The notes under the pieces were generated by a model, which saw nothing but the letters and a program-made list of their open reading frames with translations, was not told where the DNA came from and searched no databases. Made by a program: the position numbers and the translations under genes. From assembly GCF_057098645.1 (NCBI RefSeq), contig NZ_CM169472.1: DNA of 64,000 nucleotides; one strand, written 5' to 3'. How positions within the stretch are numbered: position 1 is the first letter of the stretch; every line of letters starts with the position of its first letter. Positions 1-9,151 of the stretch are shown here, piece after piece.

Positions 1-1234
1 TTTTTCTAATGGTCATAAGTATCTCGTCAATTTTATTTTGATCAATATTATCTAATTCATGAAGAATAACTATTTTATTCAACTCTTTGTATTGATATGC
101 CAAAGTGGAAGGATACGAAATGACAATATCTACATCAGGGAAATAATCATCATCTGTAATGAAATTCCATTTTGTCTTTTTGGCTTTTTCAGATGCTCTA
201 GCTTTTGGATGTTCTTTATAATAAAGAACAATATTATCTGATAACGTTGAAAGTTGTGACCCAAGACTTAGTTGTCCTCGTTCACACAATGAATGCCCAA
301 TAATTAGAATTGATAATCCTTTATTATTAATTGATGAAACATAAAATGGCTGTTGATAGAAATGAATTTTTATATTGTAATCATTAGCCTGTGAGATTAT
401 ATGCTCTAAAAATAATTCAAGCTCAATTTCGTTAAAGATAGCGAGCTCTGATACAGCTTTCAGTTTATATGAGAGAGAGAAAAATTCATAACCCTTAGTC
501 TTTAACGCCAGTAACGAGCCATGTTGAATTAATATATATCTTTTCCTTTTTATTCTGCATATAAAATCAGTTAAAACAGCCCAACGATCATAATGTTCAC
601 TACTTGCGAGATTGCCTTTAATATTATTCATTCCCATAGCAACCAAAAACCAAGAAGGTGCTGTATAAATATGAAGAAGCCATTTTATACGTGATGGTTT
701 TAAATAATAGATATAACTAAAAATAGATAACAAGAATGCTCTTGCCACATCTAGAAACGATGTTAATTCATATAAATTAATAGCATTAAAGTCACAACTC
801 GTTGGTGTATAATTTACCCATGGTAATTTTATTATAATAAGTTCATCTCGAGATAATTTGTAACTATCATTATCTTTAAAAAAATAGCAAGTTTGCCTCA
901 TTTCTAAATCTGAAAACGAAAAATAGTAAAATTTACCTTCCTTATTATTAGCAACCTTTATTTCTGAAATGGAATTTTTAAATTTAGCCAATATATATTT
1001 AGCAAAAAATAATATAACATATAATAAAAACCCCCCAAAAATAAAGGCAAACATAATCACTGCATAAATAATTTGCAAACTCGATGAACTCCACCTTTCC
1101 CCAGCCCATTTACTTGTCCTGGGAAGTGGTGGCATTTTTTTTGTAATGCTTTTTGATAAAGACTTATCGATATCTATTTCATTTTGTGTTGCGTGTAAAT
1201 AACATTCTATTATTTGCGACATTGATAATTGCAT
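1..1234 (-). CDS. Putative O-antigen glycosyltransferase, possibly a sialyltransferase; partial, 3' end lies beyond the window start
   Basis: Manual minus-strand translation from ATG 1232-1234 (alternative ATG 1220-1222) gives about 411 codons with no stop down to position 1. Absent from the ORF track only because it has no in-window stop. N-terminal hydrophobic helix; EHP motif near residue 350. Start overlaps wzy stop. Family assignment is a guess. Confidence 0.55.
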   Translation of the reverse strand, partial: MQLSMSQIIECYLHATQNEIDIDKSLSKSITKKMPPLPRTSKWAGERWSSSSLQIIYAVIMFAFIFGGFLLYVILFFAKYILAKFKNSISEIKVANNKEGKFYYFSFSDLEMRQTCYFFKDNDSYKLSRDELIIIKLPWVNYTPTSCDFNAINLYELTSFLDVARAFLLSIFSYIYYLKPSRIKWLLHIYTAPSWFLVAMGMNNIKGNLASSEHYDRWAVLTDFICRIKRKRYILIQHGSLLALKTKGYEFFSLSYKLKAVSELAIFNEIELELFLEHIISQANDYNIKIHFYQQPFYVSSINNKGLSILIIGHSLCERGQLSLGSQLSTLSDNIVLYYKEHPKARASEKAKKTKWNFITDDDYFPDVDIVISYPSTLAYQYKELNKIVILHELDNIDQNKIDEILMTIRK

Positions 1235-1236
1235 AT

Positions 1237-2424
1237 TTATCTTCCTATAGAGCTTTTAACTAATTTATATTTATATATATAATATCCGCATGAGATAAAG
1301 AACAATTGATTTACAGGAAAAGAATTTATAAATGAATTTGAAAGCCCGGATATTAGGAAATAAATAAAAACAACTCTCCAAATGGCTATATCTTCAGCCA
1401 TTAACTCATTAAATATTTTAAATTGTATGTTCCAGAAGATAAGCAGCAATAAAATTAATAAAACAATAAAAAAGCCGATTAGACCGGCATAATTAAACAT
1501 TACGAGATAAAAGTTATCTGAAATGAGATTTATATTTTTATCTAAAAAATCAGGTAGCAACATATTCAGATCAACTAAATTTAAATATGTCAGAAAGTTT
1601 TCAACTCGAATTGATGCCGTATACGTATTAAGACCTCGATATTGTGATTCAATACCAGAGATACTGCCCATATAAAATATGGCGTACAATGCACCGCAAA
1701 CAGTGCCAATGCTTGCAAGAGTAAATATTTTTTTTCGCAAGCGAATGCTGGCACTGTCTCTCAATACTACTGTTAATAAAAGTGTCATACCAAGTGATAA
1801 CCATGCTGTGCGCGAACCACTGCTAATTAACGTTATCATCGGCATTATAAGAAATAAAGCTCTTTTAAAAAGACTTTTTATATTTGTCACCAAGGCGATT
1901 AAAATAATAATCGCTGAATAAGCACCACTATTCGTAGGATTCAGAAGAGAAGATATTGACCTAATCCCATCAGTGGCAGCCCAATATGAAACCATATAAT
2001 TATAAAATACCGTTAATTCTAATACAGAAATCGTGCCTACAATAACTCCTGTCCATAAAAGAACTCTATTAACTTTCACCATATTATAAGAAAATAGAGG
2101 AATAATCAGGCAAAAGCTGATCATAGTTGCAATAATCAACATTGTTGTTGCGTAAATTGTTACCGCACCACTGAAAAGGGCTGAAGCAACAGACAGGAAC
2201 AAGAAAAAAAACAATACAAAAAAATAATTAAATTTCTTGTAAATAAATAAGATACTTAGACTTATAACTAAGCAAACTATATATTTTATAATTTTTTGCG
2301 TTAAATCTTCATTATATTTTAATGTGTCAACACCAGAAAAAATAGCATTTAAGTAATATAACGAAGAAATAATTAACCAAAAAAAAAGCACTCCATTTAT
2401 AAACTTATCTTTCTTTATATTCAC
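1237..2424 (-). CDS. wzy: O-antigen polymerase Wzy (polytopic membrane protein)
   Basis: 395 aa, highly hydrophobic multi-TM ORF; GSRTAWLSLG-type motif typical of O-antigen polymerase/ligase-like domain; very low GC; GTG start at 2422-2424. Confidence 0.6.
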   Translation of the reverse strand: MNIKKDKFINGVLFFWLIISSLYYLNAIFSGVDTLKYNEDLTQKIIKYIVCLVISLSILFIYKKFNYFFVLFFFLFLSVASALFSGAVTIYATTMLIIATMISFCLIIPLFSYNMVKVNRVLLWTGVIVGTISVLELTVFYNYMVSYWAATDGIRSISSLLNPTNSGAYSAIIILIALVTNIKSLFKRALFLIMPMITLISSGSRTAWLSLGMTLLLTVVLRDSASIRLRKKIFTLASIGTVCGALYAIFYMGSISGIESQYRGLNTYTASIRVENFLTYLNLVDLNMLLPDFLDKNINLISDNFYLVMFNYAGLIGFFIVLLILLLLIFWNIQFKIFNELMAEDIAIWRVVFIYFLISGLSNSFINSFPVNQLFFISCGYYIYKYKLVKSSIGR

Positions 2425-2431
2425 GTTTATT

Positions 2432-3670
2432 TTAAACCTTTTTTAGAATTTTATATAACGGGATCATTTTTAAGATCAAAAGTAATACAAAACTAGCTAT
2501 CATACCAATTAGCAAGTAATAGATATCACTTTGACATACGCTAAAAAAAACAAATAGTAAAAAAGATAAAAATGATATCAGTTGACTTACTAATATGTAA
2601 CGATCTTCTCTCATCGCGTATAAAGCAATATGTGGAATAAGACTTATACAATAGATATAAGTCGCTGCTATTAATAATATAAATACAGGAAATAATTGTA
2701 TGTAATCTCGTTTATCCAACCACTTAACCAATATAATCCCAGTAAAAAAGCAACAGATGCTCAAGAAAGATAGTAGTAAAATTAATTTATAAGTGAATTT
2801 TCTTAACTCAGATTTAAATTTTATATATTTTTTCCCTGAATATAACAAGGCAAGCTTTGGAAATGAAAAAGATATCAAAATAGTATCCAAAAATGATTGA
2901 ATAGCTGAAGTCATACTAACAAATAATGTATATCCCCCCAAAACTTCTAGGCCCGATATTTTTTCTACCGCGAATCTATCAAACGTGAAAAAGCCTCGTA
3001 GTGCAAGGGCTGCAATTAGCATTGGTACAGACAGCTTTATACCTTTTTTTATCCACGTCCAATCCCAGTTTGTAATATCGCTTTGTTTTTTTTTATTTAA
3101 AATATAAGCCACTCCAAGCACACTCGCGGACACAGTACCACCAAACCAAAAAATAAATACAACTGTTATATTTCTTAAGTTCGGATACACTAGCATCACA
3201 GCTATAGCTAACCAACACCATACACCTTGTCTTACAAAAAGAATAAAACTTGCAATCGATTGGCTTTCTATTGTTATTAGAACTCTATTAATCTCTTGTG
3301 ATAAGTGCTCAAAAAATAAAAGTAGGATAAACCAGTATTCACTTCCAGATGGTAATATTTCTAAATATAATAAAAAAATAAATGCCGGTATACATAGTAT
3401 ATAAGATATAACAGTAAATAGAGCTTGATTTTTTAGTATAAAAAAAAGCCTATTTTTTTGCGAGTTAATTATTTCTCTCGTTGAATACGTATAAAACTCA
3501 AAACCTACAACGAAAATACCATATCCTACAGCTGCATTAATTAATCCATACACTCCTAAATCTGTTGATGGTAAAAGTCGAGCAAGCAAAACAATGAAAA
3601 TAAATTTAGTAAGTAGAGTAATCCCTCTTAATCCAACACTTGAGTAATACTTAAGCATAGTATTAAACAT
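2432..3670 (-). CDS. wzx: O-antigen flippase Wzx
   Basis: 412 aa polytopic membrane protein; N-terminal region (LLARLLPSTDLGVYGL) typical of Wzx/RfbX polysaccharide-transport family; ATG at 3668-3670. Confidence 0.65.
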   Translation of the reverse strand: MFNTMLKYYSSVGLRGITLLTKFIFIVLLARLLPSTDLGVYGLINAAVGYGIFVVGFEFYTYSTREIINSQKNRLFFILKNQALFTVISYILCIPAFIFLLYLEILPSGSEYWFILLLFFEHLSQEINRVLITIESQSIASFILFVRQGVWCWLAIAVMLVYPNLRNITVVFIFWFGGTVSASVLGVAYILNKKKQSDITNWDWTWIKKGIKLSVPMLIAALALRGFFTFDRFAVEKISGLEVLGGYTLFVSMTSAIQSFLDTILISFSFPKLALLYSGKKYIKFKSELRKFTYKLILLLSFLSICCFFTGIILVKWLDKRDYIQLFPVFILLIAATYIYCISLIPHIALYAMREDRYILVSQLISFLSFLLFVFFSVCQSDIYYLLIGMIASFVLLLILKMIPLYKILKKV

Positions 3671-3801
3671 CCAAGGCCAATGTTAAAATCGGAAGTTTTT
3701 AATCTGTGATTATTAAATTTGCAATAATTTAAATATTAATATGAGGTTTTTAAATTTTAAATATCATACAAATAACTTATTAAAAACAATACCCATGTTG
3801 T

Positions 3802-4980
3802 TTATTTTAAATGACTATAGTCATATGCAACATCATAGAAGTCTTTATAATCCAACTTTTCATAAGTTAAAAAATCTTTAATGATTTTAACAATACTATT
3901 CATTACATCATTATTATAGTAAGGATTATGAGCATTTTTTACACGTTCAATGAAACTTTTCTGTTGTGAATAAGCAATGGCACATTCTATACTTTCTTTT
4001 TTACATATGGTATCTATTACCGAATCACCTCTAACCCTTCCTTTTTGGCGATCGCCTATATTAATCGTCGGAACCTTTAAGCTTGGAACCTCAATTAACC
4101 CAGATGACGAATTGCCTATTAAGCCATATGAATATTTTATCAAAGCTAGATATTCTTCAGGTCTCACAGAAATCATATATCGACAGCCATATACTCTACA
4201 AAAATCGAGAGTCATTTCTCTTATTTGTTCTGAACCAGTATCAGCATTTGAGCCAATAAAGATATAATCGTATTCTTCGCTAAAACTAGCTAATGCTTCT
4301 AGTAATTCTAAATACTGCTCTCTAACAGGTAAAGTTGATAACGTTTCAGGATGAAATACGACTACGAAATATTTTCTATTTAACCCACCGTACTTATTTT
4401 CAAGCTCCTTTTTAGAGGGTAATTCTAGTTGCAAACTGTTTTCAGCCCCTAGCGCACCTACATTAAATACACAATTAGGATCTTCACCAAGTTGGATAAC
4501 CCTTTTCCGATATTCATCAGTTGATACTAGATGTAGACGACTCATTTTCGTTATTGAATGTCGTATAAATTCATCATAATTCCCTAACGTTTTCTCTCCA
4601 CCATGAAGATGAATAATAGGTAGGTTATGCATAGAAGCTGCTACTGCCACTGAAAATATTTCGTATCGATCACCTAATATAATGACAGCATCATATTTTT
4701 TCTCTTGGAAATGCTCACCAAATGCTTGTTGGCATATCGACATCGTTTTCAAAACATCTGCGTTGGTTTTATTTTTCAGCTGCAAATCAATTAATTTTTC
4801 AATTAAGAAACCATCATTCTCGATTGTTTTATATGTATAACCATATTCAGAATCGCAATGCATACCTGTTGCAATAATTGATAAATCAATATCAGGATCA
4901 TCTTTTAGACTTTTTAATAGTCGTTTCATAATACCGTACTCAGCTCTTGAGCCGGTGACATAGAGCAATTTTCTTTTCAT
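3802..4980 (-). CDS. neuC: UDP-N-acetylglucosamine 2-epimerase (hydrolysing), NeuC/NnaA
   Basis: 392 aa; N-terminus MKRKLLYVTGSRAEYGI...IATGMHCD matches the NeuC family signature; ATG 4978-4980 overlaps neuA stop. Confidence 0.85.
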   Translation of the reverse strand: MKRKLLYVTGSRAEYGIMKRLLKSLKDDPDIDLSIIATGMHCDSEYGYTYKTIENDGFLIEKLIDLQLKNKTNADVLKTMSICQQAFGEHFQEKKYDAVIILGDRYEIFSVAVAASMHNLPIIHLHGGEKTLGNYDEFIRHSITKMSRLHLVSTDEYRKRVIQLGEDPNCVFNVGALGAENSLQLELPSKKELENKYGGLNRKYFVVVFHPETLSTLPVREQYLELLEALASFSEEYDYIFIGSNADTGSEQIREMTLDFCRVYGCRYMISVRPEEYLALIKYSYGLIGNSSSGLIEVPSLKVPTINIGDRQKGRVRGDSVIDTICKKESIECAIAYSQQKSFIERVKNAHNPYYNNDVMNSIVKIIKDFLTYEKLDYKDFYDVAYDYSHLK

Positions 4981-6242
4981 TTTAAGATACTCGAAATATC
5001 ATTTTCTAACTGTTTGTAAGCTTGTAACGTGAAATGTAAACCATCATAAGTATAATTTTCATTCAGATTGCCGAACTCATCATAAAAAGATGGAGATAAC
5101 GGCATCCAAATAACATTGTCTAATTTACTAAAATATTGTTTCATTGCCAGATTTAATTTATTGATAGTATTATTATCCCTATCAACTCTTCCTCGAACAG
5201 GCGGCACTGCTAGCAGAATGATAGTAACATCAGGATTTATAATTTTTACTCTATTGATCAGATTTTTTGTCCATTTTATAGTGTATTCAATAGTCCAACC
5301 ATCGTTCACAATGTCGTTTGTGCCTGAAATTAATAGCACATACTTACCTATATTGGTGAGCATGTTTTTTTCAATGATGTATTTGTAATATTTTTCGCTA
5401 TCAATGCCAGCAATGCCTAAATTGTTAACCTTAATTCCACATATGTTGCTGAGATCCCAATAATCAAAAATTGAATGTCCAATCAGTGTAATTTGCTCAA
5501 CTTTGTTAAATAAATCTTTTTTATCGACAATTCGTTTGATAATAGCATTATCCAATAAATTTTTTTTATTTTTTTTTGTTTGGATTAGAATTGCCAATTC
5601 AAAATCTAACTGATCATCGATATCAATAGAATCTTCTTTATTCATAATATAGGCTATACTGTCAGCACCAAAGAAATGTTTTTGTCTTAAATAATTAGAA
5701 ACATAACCAATAAAAATCGCACCATTTGGACAGTATTCTTTTTTATTTTGTCTACGATATGTACTAAAATCACAGTCAAAGTTCCTTAATGACAGTGAAT
5801 TATCAATTGGTTTAATTAACGCCGAACTTTTATCACTTTCTACCACAGACACCAAAAATTTTGCTTCGTGATTATTTTCAAATTGCTCAACAGCATTCTT
5901 AATATGCTTATAATTACGAAATGGTGATGTTGGTTGTAGAAGCACAAAATAATCATATCCTGGACATTTTTCAAGCACATCTTGAACTACCATAAAAGAT
6001 GTTGCCGAATCCGACGATAATTCTTTTGTGCGTAATATTACTTCCGCGCCATATTTCTCTGCAATATATTTATATTCTAATGAATCTGTTGAAACAATAA
6101 TTTTATCAAATATATTAGAGCTAATCGCTGCTTCGATAGTATAAGCAATTAATGGGCGATCCAATAACATTAGTATATTTTTATTTCGTAAGCCCTTAGA
6201 TCCAGACCGAGCAGGTATAATGGCAATTTTTTTTAATGACAC
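4977..6242 (-). CDS. neuA: CMP-N-acetylneuraminate synthetase with C-terminal SGNH/GDSL-like esterase domain, NeuA/NnaC
   Basis: 421 aa; N-terminus IAIIPARSGSKGLRNKN is the CMP-sugar cytidylyltransferase signature; C-terminal about 170 aa (LLISGTNDI...DGLHF) resembles the SGNH hydrolase domain of bifunctional NeuA; GTG start. Confidence 0.85.
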   Translation of the reverse strand: MSLKKIAIIPARSGSKGLRNKNILMLLDRPLIAYTIEAAISSNIFDKIIVSTDSLEYKYIAEKYGAEVILRTKELSSDSATSFMVVQDVLEKCPGYDYFVLLQPTSPFRNYKHIKNAVEQFENNHEAKFLVSVVESDKSSALIKPIDNSLSLRNFDCDFSTYRRQNKKEYCPNGAIFIGYVSNYLRQKHFFGADSIAYIMNKEDSIDIDDQLDFELAILIQTKKNKKNLLDNAIIKRIVDKKDLFNKVEQITLIGHSIFDYWDLSNICGIKVNNLGIAGIDSEKYYKYIIEKNMLTNIGKYVLLISGTNDIVNDGWTIEYTIKWTKNLINRVKIINPDVTIILLAVPPVRGRVDRDNNTINKLNLAMKQYFSKLDNVIWMPLSPSFYDEFGNLNENYTYDGLHFTLQAYKQLENDISSILK

Positions 6243-6245
6243 AAC

Positions 6246-7286
6246 TCAAACCTCTTGTTTACTAAAATCAGAGTGCTCAATTAGTTGATCCTCATCAAAA
6301 TCCTTTTCAGCTATTTTACCTAAGACCTCATACCAGTACATTGGACTAATTCCGTTTCCTGGTCGCTTTGTCGTAATATTTTCCGTCGTAAAAATATCTC
6401 CTTTTTTTATTGCACATTTAGCAACAATTGATTTTCGAGCTACTACTTTATTCTTTCGTTCTGAATTTGTTACTAACTTTTCATAGCTACCAAGTGAAAT
6501 TTCTACTGCACGTATTCCTTCGCATAGTAATTTAAGTTCCTCAGGTGTAACTGATGCTTTATGATCTGGACCTTCAAAATTTTTATCCAGTGTAAAATGT
6601 TTCTCAATAAAAGTGATCCCATAAGGCACTGATGCAATACCAGCAAAATAACCTGGAGAATGATCAGAAAATCCAATATTATATTGACTAAATATTTTTT
6701 TGAATCCAGAAATTGTATTTAGATTTACATCTTCAAATGGCGTTGGATACTCTGTATTACAATGTAATATTGTTATATTTCTATGTGTAATGCCATTATC
6801 AATAAAAACCTTTAATGCCAAATTGATTTCATCAACTGTTGCCATACCAGTTGATAGTACAATTTTTTTATCTTCGATTGGCAATTTGGCTATTTTCTCT
6901 AAATATGGTAAATTTAATAATTCGCCTGATGGAATCTTCCAAACTTTTTGATTTCTGGATGCAAGAAAATCGATTGAATCAAAATCAAATGGTGTTGAGA
7001 AGACATCCAACCCAAGTTCTTTTGCATATTCTTCCAGCTTGATAAACTCATCATATGGCAACTCTAACTTACGAGTCATCTCTAATTGAGTCTCTTCATT
7101 ACCGGTAACTTTTATTTGATATTCTGCTTTAGGAGCATATTTTGAGATAAGTTGCTCAGCTTTAAAAGTTTGGAATTTTACTGCATCTACCCCGGCAGAT
7201 TTTGCCTCTTTTACCATTTTCTTAGCTAACTCGAAATCTCCGTTATGATTACAACCAATTTCAGCAACAATATAAATTCTCGACAT
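6246..7286 (-). CDS. neuB: N-acetylneuraminate synthase, NeuB/NnaB
   Basis: N-terminus MSRIYIVAEIGCNHNGDFELAKKM...VDAVKFQTF is the NeuB signature; ATG at 7284-7286 preceded by AGGTGA; the track ORF begins 4 codons upstream at a GTG. Confidence 0.88.
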   Translation of the reverse strand: MSRIYIVAEIGCNHNGDFELAKKMVKEAKSAGVDAVKFQTFKAEQLISKYAPKAEYQIKVTGNEETQLEMTRKLELPYDEFIKLEEYAKELGLDVFSTPFDFDSIDFLASRNQKVWKIPSGELLNLPYLEKIAKLPIEDKKIVLSTGMATVDEINLALKVFIDNGITHRNITILHCNTEYPTPFEDVNLNTISGFKKIFSQYNIGFSDHSPGYFAGIASVPYGITFIEKHFTLDKNFEGPDHKASVTPEELKLLCEGIRAVEISLGSYEKLVTNSERKNKVVARKSIVAKCAIKKGDIFTTENITTKRPGNGISPMYWYEVLGKIAEKDFDEDQLIEHSDFSKQEV

Positions 7287-7294
7287 AATAAAAA

Positions 7295-7921
7295 TCACCT
7301 TGCTCTAATAAACTTTGTAGGAGCCCCGGCCACTACTACATTGTCAGGAACATCACGAATAACTACAGAACCAGAACCAATAATTGATGAATTACCTATC
7401 TTTAGTTGCCCATTAACAACGGTACAACTTCCTATAAAGGATTTTTCCCCAACGAATACATCACCATTAAGAACAACATTAGTAGAGATATTTGTACAAT
7501 ATGATATATAATTCCCATGCTCTACTAATGCTCTTGTGTTTATCACCACTCCATCTTCTAGTTCTGAATCACAGTTAATGATAGCCATTTTCCCTATATA
7601 AATGCAGGTACCAAGCCTAGAATGTTCAGAAATTATAGATGTTCTGTCAATTACATTGATAGTTGAAAGTTTCATTTCTTCTATTAACTTCATCCATAAG
7701 GCTCTGTAATCGGGATCTCCAATTGCAATAAAGTATAGGTATTGGTTAGGTTCGTCTATGACACCTAAAGTATCACCTAAAATAGGGTATCCTTGATGCT
7801 CACCTGTTTTAAATGTATCAATGAACCCTTCTATTTCATACTTTTCATGATCCAAACTGTCAATTACAGTTTTAGCAAAACCACCAGCACCAATAATTAT
7901 TAATTTTTGCTTCATATTCAT
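7295..7921 (-). CDS. neuD: Hexapeptide-repeat acetyltransferase of the sialic-acid pathway, NeuD/NnaD
   Basis: 208 aa; N-terminal Rossmann-like KLIIIGAGGFAK then left-handed beta-helix hexapeptide repeats; first gene after the JUMPstart region. Confidence 0.8.
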   Translation of the reverse strand: MNMKQKLIIIGAGGFAKTVIDSLDHEKYEIEGFIDTFKTGEHQGYPILGDTLGVIDEPNQYLYFIAIGDPDYRALWMKLIEEMKLSTINVIDRTSIISEHSRLGTCIYIGKMAIINCDSELEDGVVINTRALVEHGNYISYCTNISTNVVLNGDVFVGEKSFIGSCTVVNGQLKIGNSSIIGSGSVVIRDVPDNVVVAGAPTKFIRAR

Positions 7922-7996
7922 ACCATCTAATGGTTTGATTAGATCACATTAACTTTGTTGTTACTTGTATTCATGACAACGATAATACATAAATAT

Positions 7997-8035
7997 CTCA
8001 AAAACACACGCTACCGCCCCTGGCTTTACAGCAAC
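7997..8035 (-). promoter_or_regulatory. JUMPstart element with ops (GGCGGTAGCGTG on minus strand at 8007-8018) upstream of the O-antigen operon
   Basis: Exact ops 12-mer read on the minus strand; flanking bases acacgctaccgcccctggcttt are shared with the wza upstream copy at 33061-33082. Confidence 0.85.
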
Positions 8036-8245
8036 CAGAGCACTATCTGAATAACAAAGTTATAACCTGCCTCACCAGCCATAGCAAAGCATTATAATTT
8101 CAACTCTCAATTGTCTTACTAAATACTGGCAGAAACAAGGAAAATCCGACAAAAAATCGGAGTAACATTTTTTACTTAGTGTAATAACCGCAGAGACGTT
8201 AGCTGGCGTTGTTCTTTCTAACATGTGACTGCTAATGCTCGAAAT

Positions 8246-9151
8246 CTACTTCTCTAGTAACATCTCAATACTTTTACGGAACTTCGTCCCTTCTTTCAGG
8301 TTGCGTAGCCCATACTTCACAAACGCCTGCATGTAGCCCATTTTTTTGCCGCAGTCGTAGCTGTCACCAGTCATCAGCATTGCATCAACAGACTGTTTTT
8401 TCGCCAGTTCAGCAATAGCATCAGTCAGTTGGATACGTCCCCATGCACCTGGCTGAGTGCGTTCAAGTTCCGGCCAAATATCGGCAGAAAGCACATAACG
8501 GCCCACGGCCATGATGTCTGAGTCCAGCGTCTGCGGCTGATCCGGTTTTTCGATAAATTCAACAATGCGGCTGACTTTACCTTCGCGATCCAGCGTTTCT
8601 TTGGTCTGAATAACAGAGTATTCAGAGAGGTCACCCGGCATACGTTTTGCCAGCACCAGGCTGCGGCCCGTTTCGTTGAAGCGCGCAATCATGGCTGCAA
8701 GGTTGTAACGCAGCGGGTCGGCGCTGGCGTCGTCGATCACAACGTCTGGCAGCACCACGACAAATGGATTGTCACCAATGGCGGGTCGTGCACATAAAAT
8801 GGAGTGGCCCAAACCTAAAGGTTCGCCCTGACGCACGTTCATAATTGTCACGCCTGGCGGGCAAATGGACTGTACTCCCGCCAGTAGTTGACGCTTCACG
8901 CGCTGCTCAAGGAGAGATTCTAATTCATAAGAGGTGTCGAAGTGGTTTTCGACCGCGTTCTTGGACGCGTGAGTTACCAGGAGGATCTCTTTGATCCCTG
9001 CAGCCACAATCTCGTCAACAATGTACTGAATCATTGGCTTGTCGACGATCGGTAGCATCTCTTTGGGAATCGCCTTAGTGGCAGGCAACATATGCATCCC
9101 AAGACCCGCTACAGGAATAACTGCTTTTAAATTCGTCATTATTTCATCCAC
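8246..9151 (-). CDS. galF: UTP--glucose-1-phosphate uridylyltransferase paralogue GalF
   Basis: 301 aa; [44 protein letters not shown] matches GalF/GalU family; conserved position between colanic-acid and O-antigen clusters. Confidence 0.93.

Follow-up and report, generated by a model that had tools for sequence, protein, structure and literature searches.

A predicted membrane-anchored glycosyltransferase from a new sequence family is the probable sialyltransferase of the Escherichia coli O145 O-antigen cluster

Two short motifs are common to the sialyltransferase families GT38, GT52 and GT80 (GT, glycosyltransferase family): D/E-D/E-G, which provides the general base, and HP, which serves in binding of the donor cytidine monophosphate-N-acetylneuraminic acid (CMP-Neu5Ac) (Freiberger et al., PMC2169525). 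GT52 genes are present in five of the six E. coli O-antigen clusters that contain nnaDBCA, namely O24, O56, O104, O131 and O171 (Iguchi 2015, PMC4379981), and their presence was confirmed here in the O104 and O131 loci. O145 is the sixth cluster, and alone among the sialylated E. coli clusters it has no GT52 enzyme. Neu5Ac is listed in the O145 antigen, in which the GT4 enzyme WbuB is assigned to the L-FucNAm-(α1→3)-GlcNAc linkage between the acetamidino sugar L-FucNAm and N-acetylglucosamine (PMC7685785). The DNA analyzed here, a stretch of 64,000 nucleotides from contig NZ_CM169472.1 of assembly GCF_057098645.1 (the window, to which all positions refer unless a locus is named), contains the E. 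coli O145 O-antigen locus. Its first 1,234 positions are occupied, on the minus strand, by a gene whose product RefSeq labels "hypothetical protein". We consider it likely that this target gene encodes the CMP-Neu5Ac:L-FucNAm sialyltransferase of the O145 O-unit and that the enzyme comes from a new sequence family.

The gene content of the cluster leaves one step open. The galF-to-gnd interval holds 15 genes. Identification of the neighbors with Pfam and NCBIfam gives the order galF, neuD, neuB, neuA, neuC, wzx, wzy and the target gene, and eight further cluster genes follow past the window edge: wbuX (an N-acetyl-sugar amidotransferase), a hisH-like gene, a hisF-like gene, fnlA, fnlB, fnlC, wbuB (GT4) and wbuC, and then gnd. 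The acetamidino module is composed of wbuX and the HisH-like and HisF-like genes. The first-pass annotation, made from the letters of the window alone, had placed the target last in the cluster after wzy, a view created by the window edge. WecA, which is encoded outside the cluster, starts the O-unit, and Wzy makes the bond between units. All the other genes between galF and gnd have an assigned non-transferase role or correspond to WbuB. Because every other linkage and gene in O145 is accounted for, the sialyl linkage is left for the target. The O145 unit described by Feng et al. in 2005 is said to be a trisaccharide of GlcNAc, L-FucNAm and Neu5Ac, with Neu5Ac reportedly joined α2→3 to FucNAm.

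Within the O-antigen cluster of E. coli O145, the target is a real, intact and conserved gene. Translation from the ATG at 1234 down to position 1 gives 411 sense codons without a stop (1-1234, minus strand), as the first-pass annotation had claimed for an unlisted, uninterrupted frame of about 411 codons, and a Shine-Dalgarno sequence, AGGAAG (1241-1246, minus strand), lies 6 nt 5' of the ATG and gives good support to this start. Over its first 2.5 kb, the window matches 37 complete E. coli O145 chromosomes with 100% identity. Sequence past the window edge completes the frame. In the O145:H28 strain RM13514 the full-length gene has 1257 nt and encodes 418 amino acids (WP_001177241.1), and therefore the window misses just the final seven codons and the stop. 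The list of open reading frames (ORFs) is empty on the minus strand across 1-1236 because the listing rule omits frames that run off the end of the source. The unlisted status of the target is a tool artefact and no sign that the frame is not a gene. The stop codon of wzy (TAA, 1237-1239) is followed 2 nt later by the ATG of the target (1234-1232), and the two genes are thus tightly coupled.

One of the 37 O145 genomes, strain 99-3311 (NZ_CP101310.1), has lost one A from a run of five at about window position 181 (gene nucleotide 1054; L036:3785-4888). The deletion shifts the frame past codon ~351, shortens the protein to 367 amino acids and removes the invariant SYPSTL motif described below. 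It could be a natural null allele, with a defect in the O-antigen, or a homopolymer sequencing error; wzy of this strain also differs by 1 nt. At its other end, the target overlaps the start of wbuX by 11 nt (window 1-11 and beyond; L001:11978-11988). Overlaps of 8-20 nt between the family member and the amidotransferase gene are found in Xenorhabdus (L002), Citrobacter (L037), a Salmonella-like contig (L038) and a Campylobacterales metagenome-assembled genome (L003), which suggests conserved translational coupling of the two genes.

The strongest evidence for function is the genomic association of the family. Besides O145, 30 loci with a family member were compared by scoring marker genes with tblastn, and the counts refer to the 26 loci longer than 10 kb. 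A NeuB-family nonulosonic-acid synthase lies within 10 kb in 25/26 loci and a CMP-nonulosonate synthetase likewise in 25/26. FnlA-type genes are found in 22/26 loci and the amidotransferase/HisH/HisF module in 20/26. The O145 arrangement with neuDBAC is seen in the enterobacterial members, in Xenorhabdus, Photorhabdus, Citrobacter and the Salmonella-like contig, wherever their flank is long enough. Many other loci have a legionaminic-type gene set together with the same downstream module. This set comprises a DegT enzyme, a hydrolysing epimerase, NeuB, a PglD-like acetyltransferase, a CBS-nucleotidyltransferase, a GFO/IDH/MocA enzyme, a CMP synthetase and a PtmA-like short-chain dehydrogenase/reductase (SDR). 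A homologue with 39% identity lies in such a legionaminic-type cluster. The same cluster has a small MaoC-dehydratase-like gene (L039:3997-4422), which hints at an N-acyl-modified legionaminic acid donor. Depending on the cluster, family members probably transfer Neu5Ac or legionaminic-type acids.

The loci that depart from the O145 arrangement separate the nonulosonic acid from the amidino sugar. In Agrobacterium albertimagni and Mesorhizobium loti the family member is part of a compact legionaminic-type cluster with no Fnl or amidotransferase genes. At the Agrobacterium locus, the flanking ORFs that reach 150 amino acids showed one other transferase, the initiating phosphotransferase; at the Mesorhizobium locus, no other transferase was found among ten nearby ORFs, which are a part of those in the locus. 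In two loci the family member is followed directly by FnlABC, with the amidotransferase absent. The amidotransferase is absent from L024, L025, L034 and L035, which have full 10-kb flanks, and is not seen in L014 and L033, whose downstream flank is short; all six keep nonulosonic-acid genes. The E. coli O118/O151 locus served as a negative control. It has the same FucNAm module, with an amidotransferase 82% identical to that of O145, but no neu genes and no family member, and an ordinary GT4 gene (L008:12134-13243) lies between wzy and the amidotransferase gene, the slot that the target has in O145. Taken together, the amidotransferase-free loci and this control indicate that the family follows the nonulosonic acid and not the amidino sugar. 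O118/O151 and O145 share a FucNAm-WbuB-WbuC block, of which only a part was compared, the 82% identity referring to the amidotransferase gene; the sharing suggests that the 5' half of the cluster is exchanged as a module.

Pseudomonas aeruginosa offers a parallel. Its strain PA7 is of serotype O12 (PMC4600120), whose O-antigen combines an acetamidino group with a residue of the sialic-acid type (PMC11637443). The PA7 locus is among those with nonulosonic-acid synthesis genes next to the family member. Genes follow each other there as in O145, and the only transferases are a WecA/MraY-type initiating enzyme, one GT4 enzyme and the family member. The O12 unit is reportedly composed of 8-epilegionaminic acid, L-FucNAm and D-QuiNAc.

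A word-indexed search retrieved 24 homologues from Salmonella, Citrobacter, Xenorhabdus, Photorhabdus, Campylobacterales and metagenomes, all of them unnamed and without Pfam domains. HMMER, run exhaustively over 1.84 billion cluster representatives, gave 384 family members at E<=1e-3, of which 220 also pass E<=1e-10, and nearly all have 400-440 amino acids. A word-indexed profile search of 5.8 billion proteins found family members only, none of which carries a Pfam domain. The target itself has no Pfam or NCBIfam match (none in Pfam even at E<=10), and neither the single protein nor the family profile matches a sequence in PDB.

Conservation was counted in an alignment of 147 homologues with a mean column identity of 27%. 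P38, D216, Q237-H238-G239, H342-P343, Y374, S376 and Y382 are invariant, and N18, R39, H214, R217, W218, G313, K340, T377, L378 and H392 are among the nearly invariant residues. Five conserved elements can be recognized in addition to the membrane segment (all on the minus strand). A conserved segment before the membrane helix (1118-1189) has N18 in 145/147, D23 in 133/147, P38 in 147/147 and R39 in 142/147 sequences. The H-Y-D-R-W-A motif (residues 214-219; 578-595) has H214 in 146/147, D216 in 147/147, R217 in 146/147 and W218 in 145/147, and is a candidate acceptor or catalytic site. Each residue of the Q-H-G motif (residues 237-239; 518-526) is found in 147/147. The HP motif YKEHPKA (residues 339-345; 200-220), near the C-terminal region as the first-pass annotation had stated, has H342 and P343 in 147/147, K340 in 146/147 and Y339 in 144/147; by analogy, it is proposed to contact the phosphate and carboxylate of CMP-Neu5Ac. 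The S-Y-P-S-T-L motif (residues 373-378; 101-118), with Y374 and S376 in 147/147, L378 in 146/147 and T377 in 145/147, is proposed, also by analogy, to bind the nucleotide phosphate.

Structure prediction, one of the checks suggested at the outset, yields a GT-B fold with two Rossmann-like domains. AlphaFold2 with the family alignment gave a confident model of the target (predicted local distance difference test score, pLDDT, 88.3; predicted template-modelling score, pTM, 0.87), which consists of an N-terminal helix at residues 5-29 (pLDDT 93-97), a long hydrophobic helix and two alpha/beta domains. The modelled fold is that of a membrane-anchored GT-B glycosyltransferase. The membrane helix had been predicted at the N-terminus; it is real, although it sits at residues 53-82, after the conserved 50-residue segment, where hydropathy peaks (Kyte-Doolittle 19-residue maximum 2.72). 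This hydrophobic segment, LQIIYAVIMFAFIFGGFLLYVILFFAKYIL (989-1078, minus strand), is flanked by basic residues on both sides. Its 30 residues have a central GG, which is kept in about half of the family. Should the N-terminal helix pack against the catalytic domain in the cytoplasm, these residues would need to form a re-entrant segment and not a membrane-spanning one.

The conserved motifs fall at strand ends in the model. HYDRWA, a motif of the N-terminal Rossmann-like domain, is placed between strand 208-211 and helix 217-229, and QHG comes directly past strand 233-236. YKEHPKA comes directly past strand 335-340 of the C-terminal domain, and SYPSTL sits where strand 370-373 turns into helix 377-384. 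The fold-match figures are 12.8 for NeuC (5zlr), 12.8 for PglA (8dqd), 12.6 for a polysialyltransferase (5wc6), ~11 for TarL/TagF and 9.2 for a GT80 enzyme (2zwi), and Foldseek against PDB returned generic GT-B structures at a template-modelling (TM) score of ~0.45 with no specific family. The target is thus a divergent GT-B protein, and its chemistry is not settled by the fold alone.

How the target stands to the known sialyltransferases was examined with hidden Markov model (HMM) searches and with hhalign. The references NeuS (GT38), WbwA (GT52) and the O131 GT52 enzyme were taken from E. coli genomes, and a GT38 alignment was built. For the target, the search proposed by the first-pass annotation, against GT38, GT52, GT80 and GT42, came back empty, and so did those of NCBIfam and of PDB sequences. 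With GT38 (PF07388), the target has no Pfam match at E<=10 and one of 19 homologues matches at E 0.005. The target family aligns with NeuS at a score of 31.9 (P 0.0012, probability 19%) and with the GT38 alignment at a probability of 4.5%, in both cases over the HP segment alone, and HMM cross-searches with GT38 stay below 10 bits and are restricted to this segment. NeuS is the sole reference above background; WbwA, KpsS, NeuE and WbuB score 14-17. The HP segments that align are YYKEHPKA in the target, FIKPHPKE in NeuS and IRQHPRE in WbwA.

At a relaxed threshold, hhalign brings four motifs of the target family into register with GT38 in the same order. EHY..AVL is paired with HYAIF, LIQHGS with LIEEGT, YYKEHPKA with FIKPHPKE, and ISYPSTLAY with IGLTSSSLVY. 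The second pair sets QHG opposite the general-base motif D/E-D/E-G, an equivalence of low confidence. The score of this alignment, 28.3, exceeds all of 30 column shuffles (11.5-18.3) and both reversed controls (~21); global-mode hhalign gave a meaningless alignment. Measured against the GT-B sialyltransferases with the Freiberger motifs, the target thus has the HP motif in its nucleotide-binding domain, aligned with those of NeuS and WbwA, and a predicted GT-B fold with two Rossmann domains, and it has no D/E-D/E-G in the N-terminal domain. Transfer of sialic acid from CMP-Neu5Ac by the target is something we infer through gene context.

Each known family differs from the target in several respects. 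GT38 enzymes (NeuS of K1, SiaD of Neisseria meningitidis B, and the Mannheimia polysialyltransferase 5wc6) have EEG where the target has QHG, and do not have its internal membrane helix and conserved 50-residue N-terminal segment. GT38 builds a polymer, whereas transfer by the target would be limited to one residue on L-FucNAm as acceptor. GT52 enzymes (WbwA of E. coli O104, Neisseria Lst) have the same role in other sialylated E. coli O-antigen clusters and resemble the target in their GT-B fold and HP motif (PMC4202792). However, WbwA has ~316 amino acids and no comparable membrane segment, it acts on Gal-β1,3-GalNAc-PP-lipid, and it has no detectable sequence relationship to the target: GT52 (PF07922) gives no Pfam match, and hhalign against WbwA gives 16.4 (P 0.18, probability 0.3%), with the HP segment as the one stretch aligned. 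The GT80 enzymes (Pasteurella PmST1 and the Photobacterium enzymes) have no sequence match, a different motif spacing and an acidic general base where the target has His. Neither GT80 (PF11477) nor GT42 (PF06002) has a Pfam match to the target or to any of 19 homologues, and there is no PDB sequence match although structures of both families are deposited. Unlike the GT-B model of the target, GT42 has a GT-A fold (PMC4202792). The WbuB-type GT4 transferases of L-FucNAc and L-FucNAm share with the target the GT-B fold, the pathway and the lipid-linked intermediate. In contrast to the target, WbuB is recognized by GT4 Pfam models, and the bond it forms joins FucNAm to GlcNAc; the target has no Pfam match to GT4 (Glycos_transf_1), and hhalign against WbuB is at background (14.3). 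The target family appears to be a separate sequence family outside GT38, GT52, GT80 and GT42, possibly a very distant relative of GT38. In our reading, it would share the HP-type CMP-sugar site and have His238 in place of the acidic base of the others.

A route to the O145 unit can be proposed from these assignments. WecA and WbuB would build L-FucNAm-(α1→3)-GlcNAc-PP-undecaprenol, and NeuD, NeuB, NeuA and NeuC would supply CMP-Neu5Ac, the product of NeuA being the donor. Anchored in the inner membrane, the target would transfer Neu5Ac to O-3 of L-FucNAm at the cytoplasmic face. The completed trisaccharide would then be flipped by Wzx and polymerised by Wzy. By analogy with GT38, GT52 and GT80, H342/P343 and S376/T377 may hold the CMP phosphate and the sialate carboxylate. 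The acceptor hydroxyl may be deprotonated by H238, or by D216 of HYDRWA, as a general base that replaces the usual Asp/Glu.

Several points weigh against this assignment. We found no biochemical or genetic test of the target or of any homologue in the accessible literature. The target has no significant match to any curated sialyltransferase family in HMM, PDB or profile searches, its GT38 signal is weak (hhalign probability 4.5-19%, cross-scores below 10 bits), and the 147-sequence alignment has no conserved D/E-D/E-G acidic motif. The O145 repeat-unit structure follows what Feng et al. 2005 reportedly described, together with partial statements in reviews. The target adjoins the amidotransferase gene in 20/26 loci, with overlaps in several, and a role tied to that module is compatible with the gene order. 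The description of the target as the natural candidate for the Neu5Ac transferase thus holds in part. It is favored by the position of the target as the only unassigned transferase candidate in a CMP-Neu5Ac cluster, the membrane anchor, the invariant HP and the association with nonulosonic-acid genes; set against it are the missing match to a known family and the replacement of D/E-D/E-G by an invariant QHG, and we infer the donor, the acceptor and the roles of the residues.

Other functions of the target jointly take up a minor part of our expectation. The target could be an accessory or scaffold protein of the acetamidino module, for example a membrane partner of the amidotransferase WbuX/LfnA. 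It lies immediately upstream of the amidotransferase gene in those 20 loci, from enterobacteria, pseudomonads, Campylobacterales and marine metagenomes, several of the pairs overlap by 8-20 nt, and WbuX/LfnA is membrane-associated according to the title of King 2008, as cited in PMC11637443. We hold this role to be very improbable, as O118/O151 uses the same module to make FucNAm and lacks a homologue of the target, the six family loci without the amidotransferase keep their nonulosonic-acid genes, and a GT-B fold with invariant His, Asp and Ser/Thr at strand ends resembles a typical catalytic site. That the target is needed for FucNAm synthesis was ruled out by the O118/O151 control. There is just as little to expect from a different GT-B chemistry, that of a NeuC-like epimerase or hydrolase, a TagF/TarL-like CDP-alditol phosphotransferase or a KpsS/KpsC-like transferase of 3-deoxy-D-manno-oct-2-ulosonic acid (Kdo). 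The fold matches to NeuC (5zlr) and TarL/TagF do point to such enzymes, but the target has no Pfam or NCBIfam match to Epimerase_2, Glyphos_transf (the profile of TagF-like CDP-glycerol/ribitol phosphotransferases) or Capsule_synth, and hhalign against KpsS is at background (17.1, P 0.17). NeuC and FnlC are already encoded in the O145 cluster, which lacks genes for CDP-glycerol or CDP-ribitol and so has no CDP-alditol supply, whereas O118/O151 has a cytidylyltransferase/SDR gene and LicD. Neither an alditol phosphate nor Kdo is known to be part of the O145 repeat unit. The TagF-like, Kdo transferase and NeuE-like identities gave no profile signal.

A glycosyltransferase for another residue or modification, with sialic acid added by an enzyme encoded elsewhere, is barely more probable than these two. 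It draws on the same gaps, namely that the donor is assigned to the target indirectly, the canonical D/E-D/E-G is missing and the similarity to GT38 is weak. However, the family tracks NeuB and CMP-synthetase genes in 25/26 loci across phyla, whichever acceptor-sugar genes are present, and the Agrobacterium flanks, in their ORFs of 150 amino acids or more, showed no other transferase except the initiating enzyme. To our knowledge, no further O145 sugar needs a transferase. WbuB already has its assigned linkage in O145 (PMC7685785). A CMP-Neu5Ac:L-FucNAm sialyltransferase remains the likely function of the target.

The other genes of the locus inside the window are all on the minus strand. They are wzy (O145 O-antigen polymerase, 1237-2424), wzx (O145 O-antigen flippase, 2432-3670), neuC/nnaA (hydrolysing UDP-GlcNAc 2-epimerase, 3802-4980), neuA/nnaC (CMP-Neu5Ac synthetase with a C-terminal GDSL domain and the source of the proposed donor substrate, 4977-6242), neuB/nnaB (N-acetylneuraminate synthase, 6246-7298 as a mechanical ORF, with a later start in RefSeq), neuD/nnaD (acetyltransferase, 7295-7921) and galF, the upstream boundary of the cluster (8246-9151). 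The two-domain architecture of NeuA, a CMP-sialate synthetase with a C-terminal GDSL-type esterase, is also found in the O104, O131, K1, Xenorhabdus and Citrobacter loci. Non-coding gaps are present at 3671-3801 and 7922-8245, the latter being the expected JUMPStart/promoter region. The G+C content is 29% in the target stretch, 0.29-0.31 in the O-antigen genes (window 1-8000) and 0.53 in the rest of the window (9000-64000), which holds the colanic-acid genes and what lies beyond. The low G+C content is consistent with a horizontal origin of the cluster and is usual in O-antigen clusters. The accession given in the O-antigen catalogues is AY647260.

The O145 cluster was reportedly published in 2005, and it is very probable that elimination had already led to the target as the sialyltransferase at that time; the bare idea of a sialyltransferase is therefore not new. 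New in the resources searched are the family assignment, the breadth of the family, its connection with legionaminic-type clusters and with P. aeruginosa O12, and the variant catalytic motif. We lean, by a modest degree, towards a wider view. The family would then be a new CAZy-level family of membrane-anchored GT-B CMP-nonulosonate transferases with QHG (His for the Asp/Glu base), HP and SYPSTL, using Neu5Ac, legionaminic acid and 8-epilegionaminic acid as donors and mostly L-FucNAm or L-FucNAc as acceptors, and it would include the enzyme that transfers the nonulosonic acid in the O12 O-antigen of P. aeruginosa, an antigen that the high-risk clone ST111 carries.

The probable enzyme for the defining sialyl linkage of O145 is thus a "hypothetical protein" in RefSeq, with no relative in Pfam, in NCBIfam or among solved structures. 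If the assignment is true, it would close the last gap in the O145 pathway, and the same would hold for P. aeruginosa O12 and for the clusters of Salmonella, Citrobacter and Xenorhabdus/Photorhabdus. The nonulosonic-acid transferases recognized in this way, with their unusual catalytic motif, would form a family of at least 384 clusters at 50% identity. Its members would provide enzymes for glycoengineering of glycans capped with Neu5Ac or legionaminic acid on 6-deoxy-amino-sugar acceptors, and its profile would let annotation pipelines catch sialic-acid-like surface decoration that is now missed.

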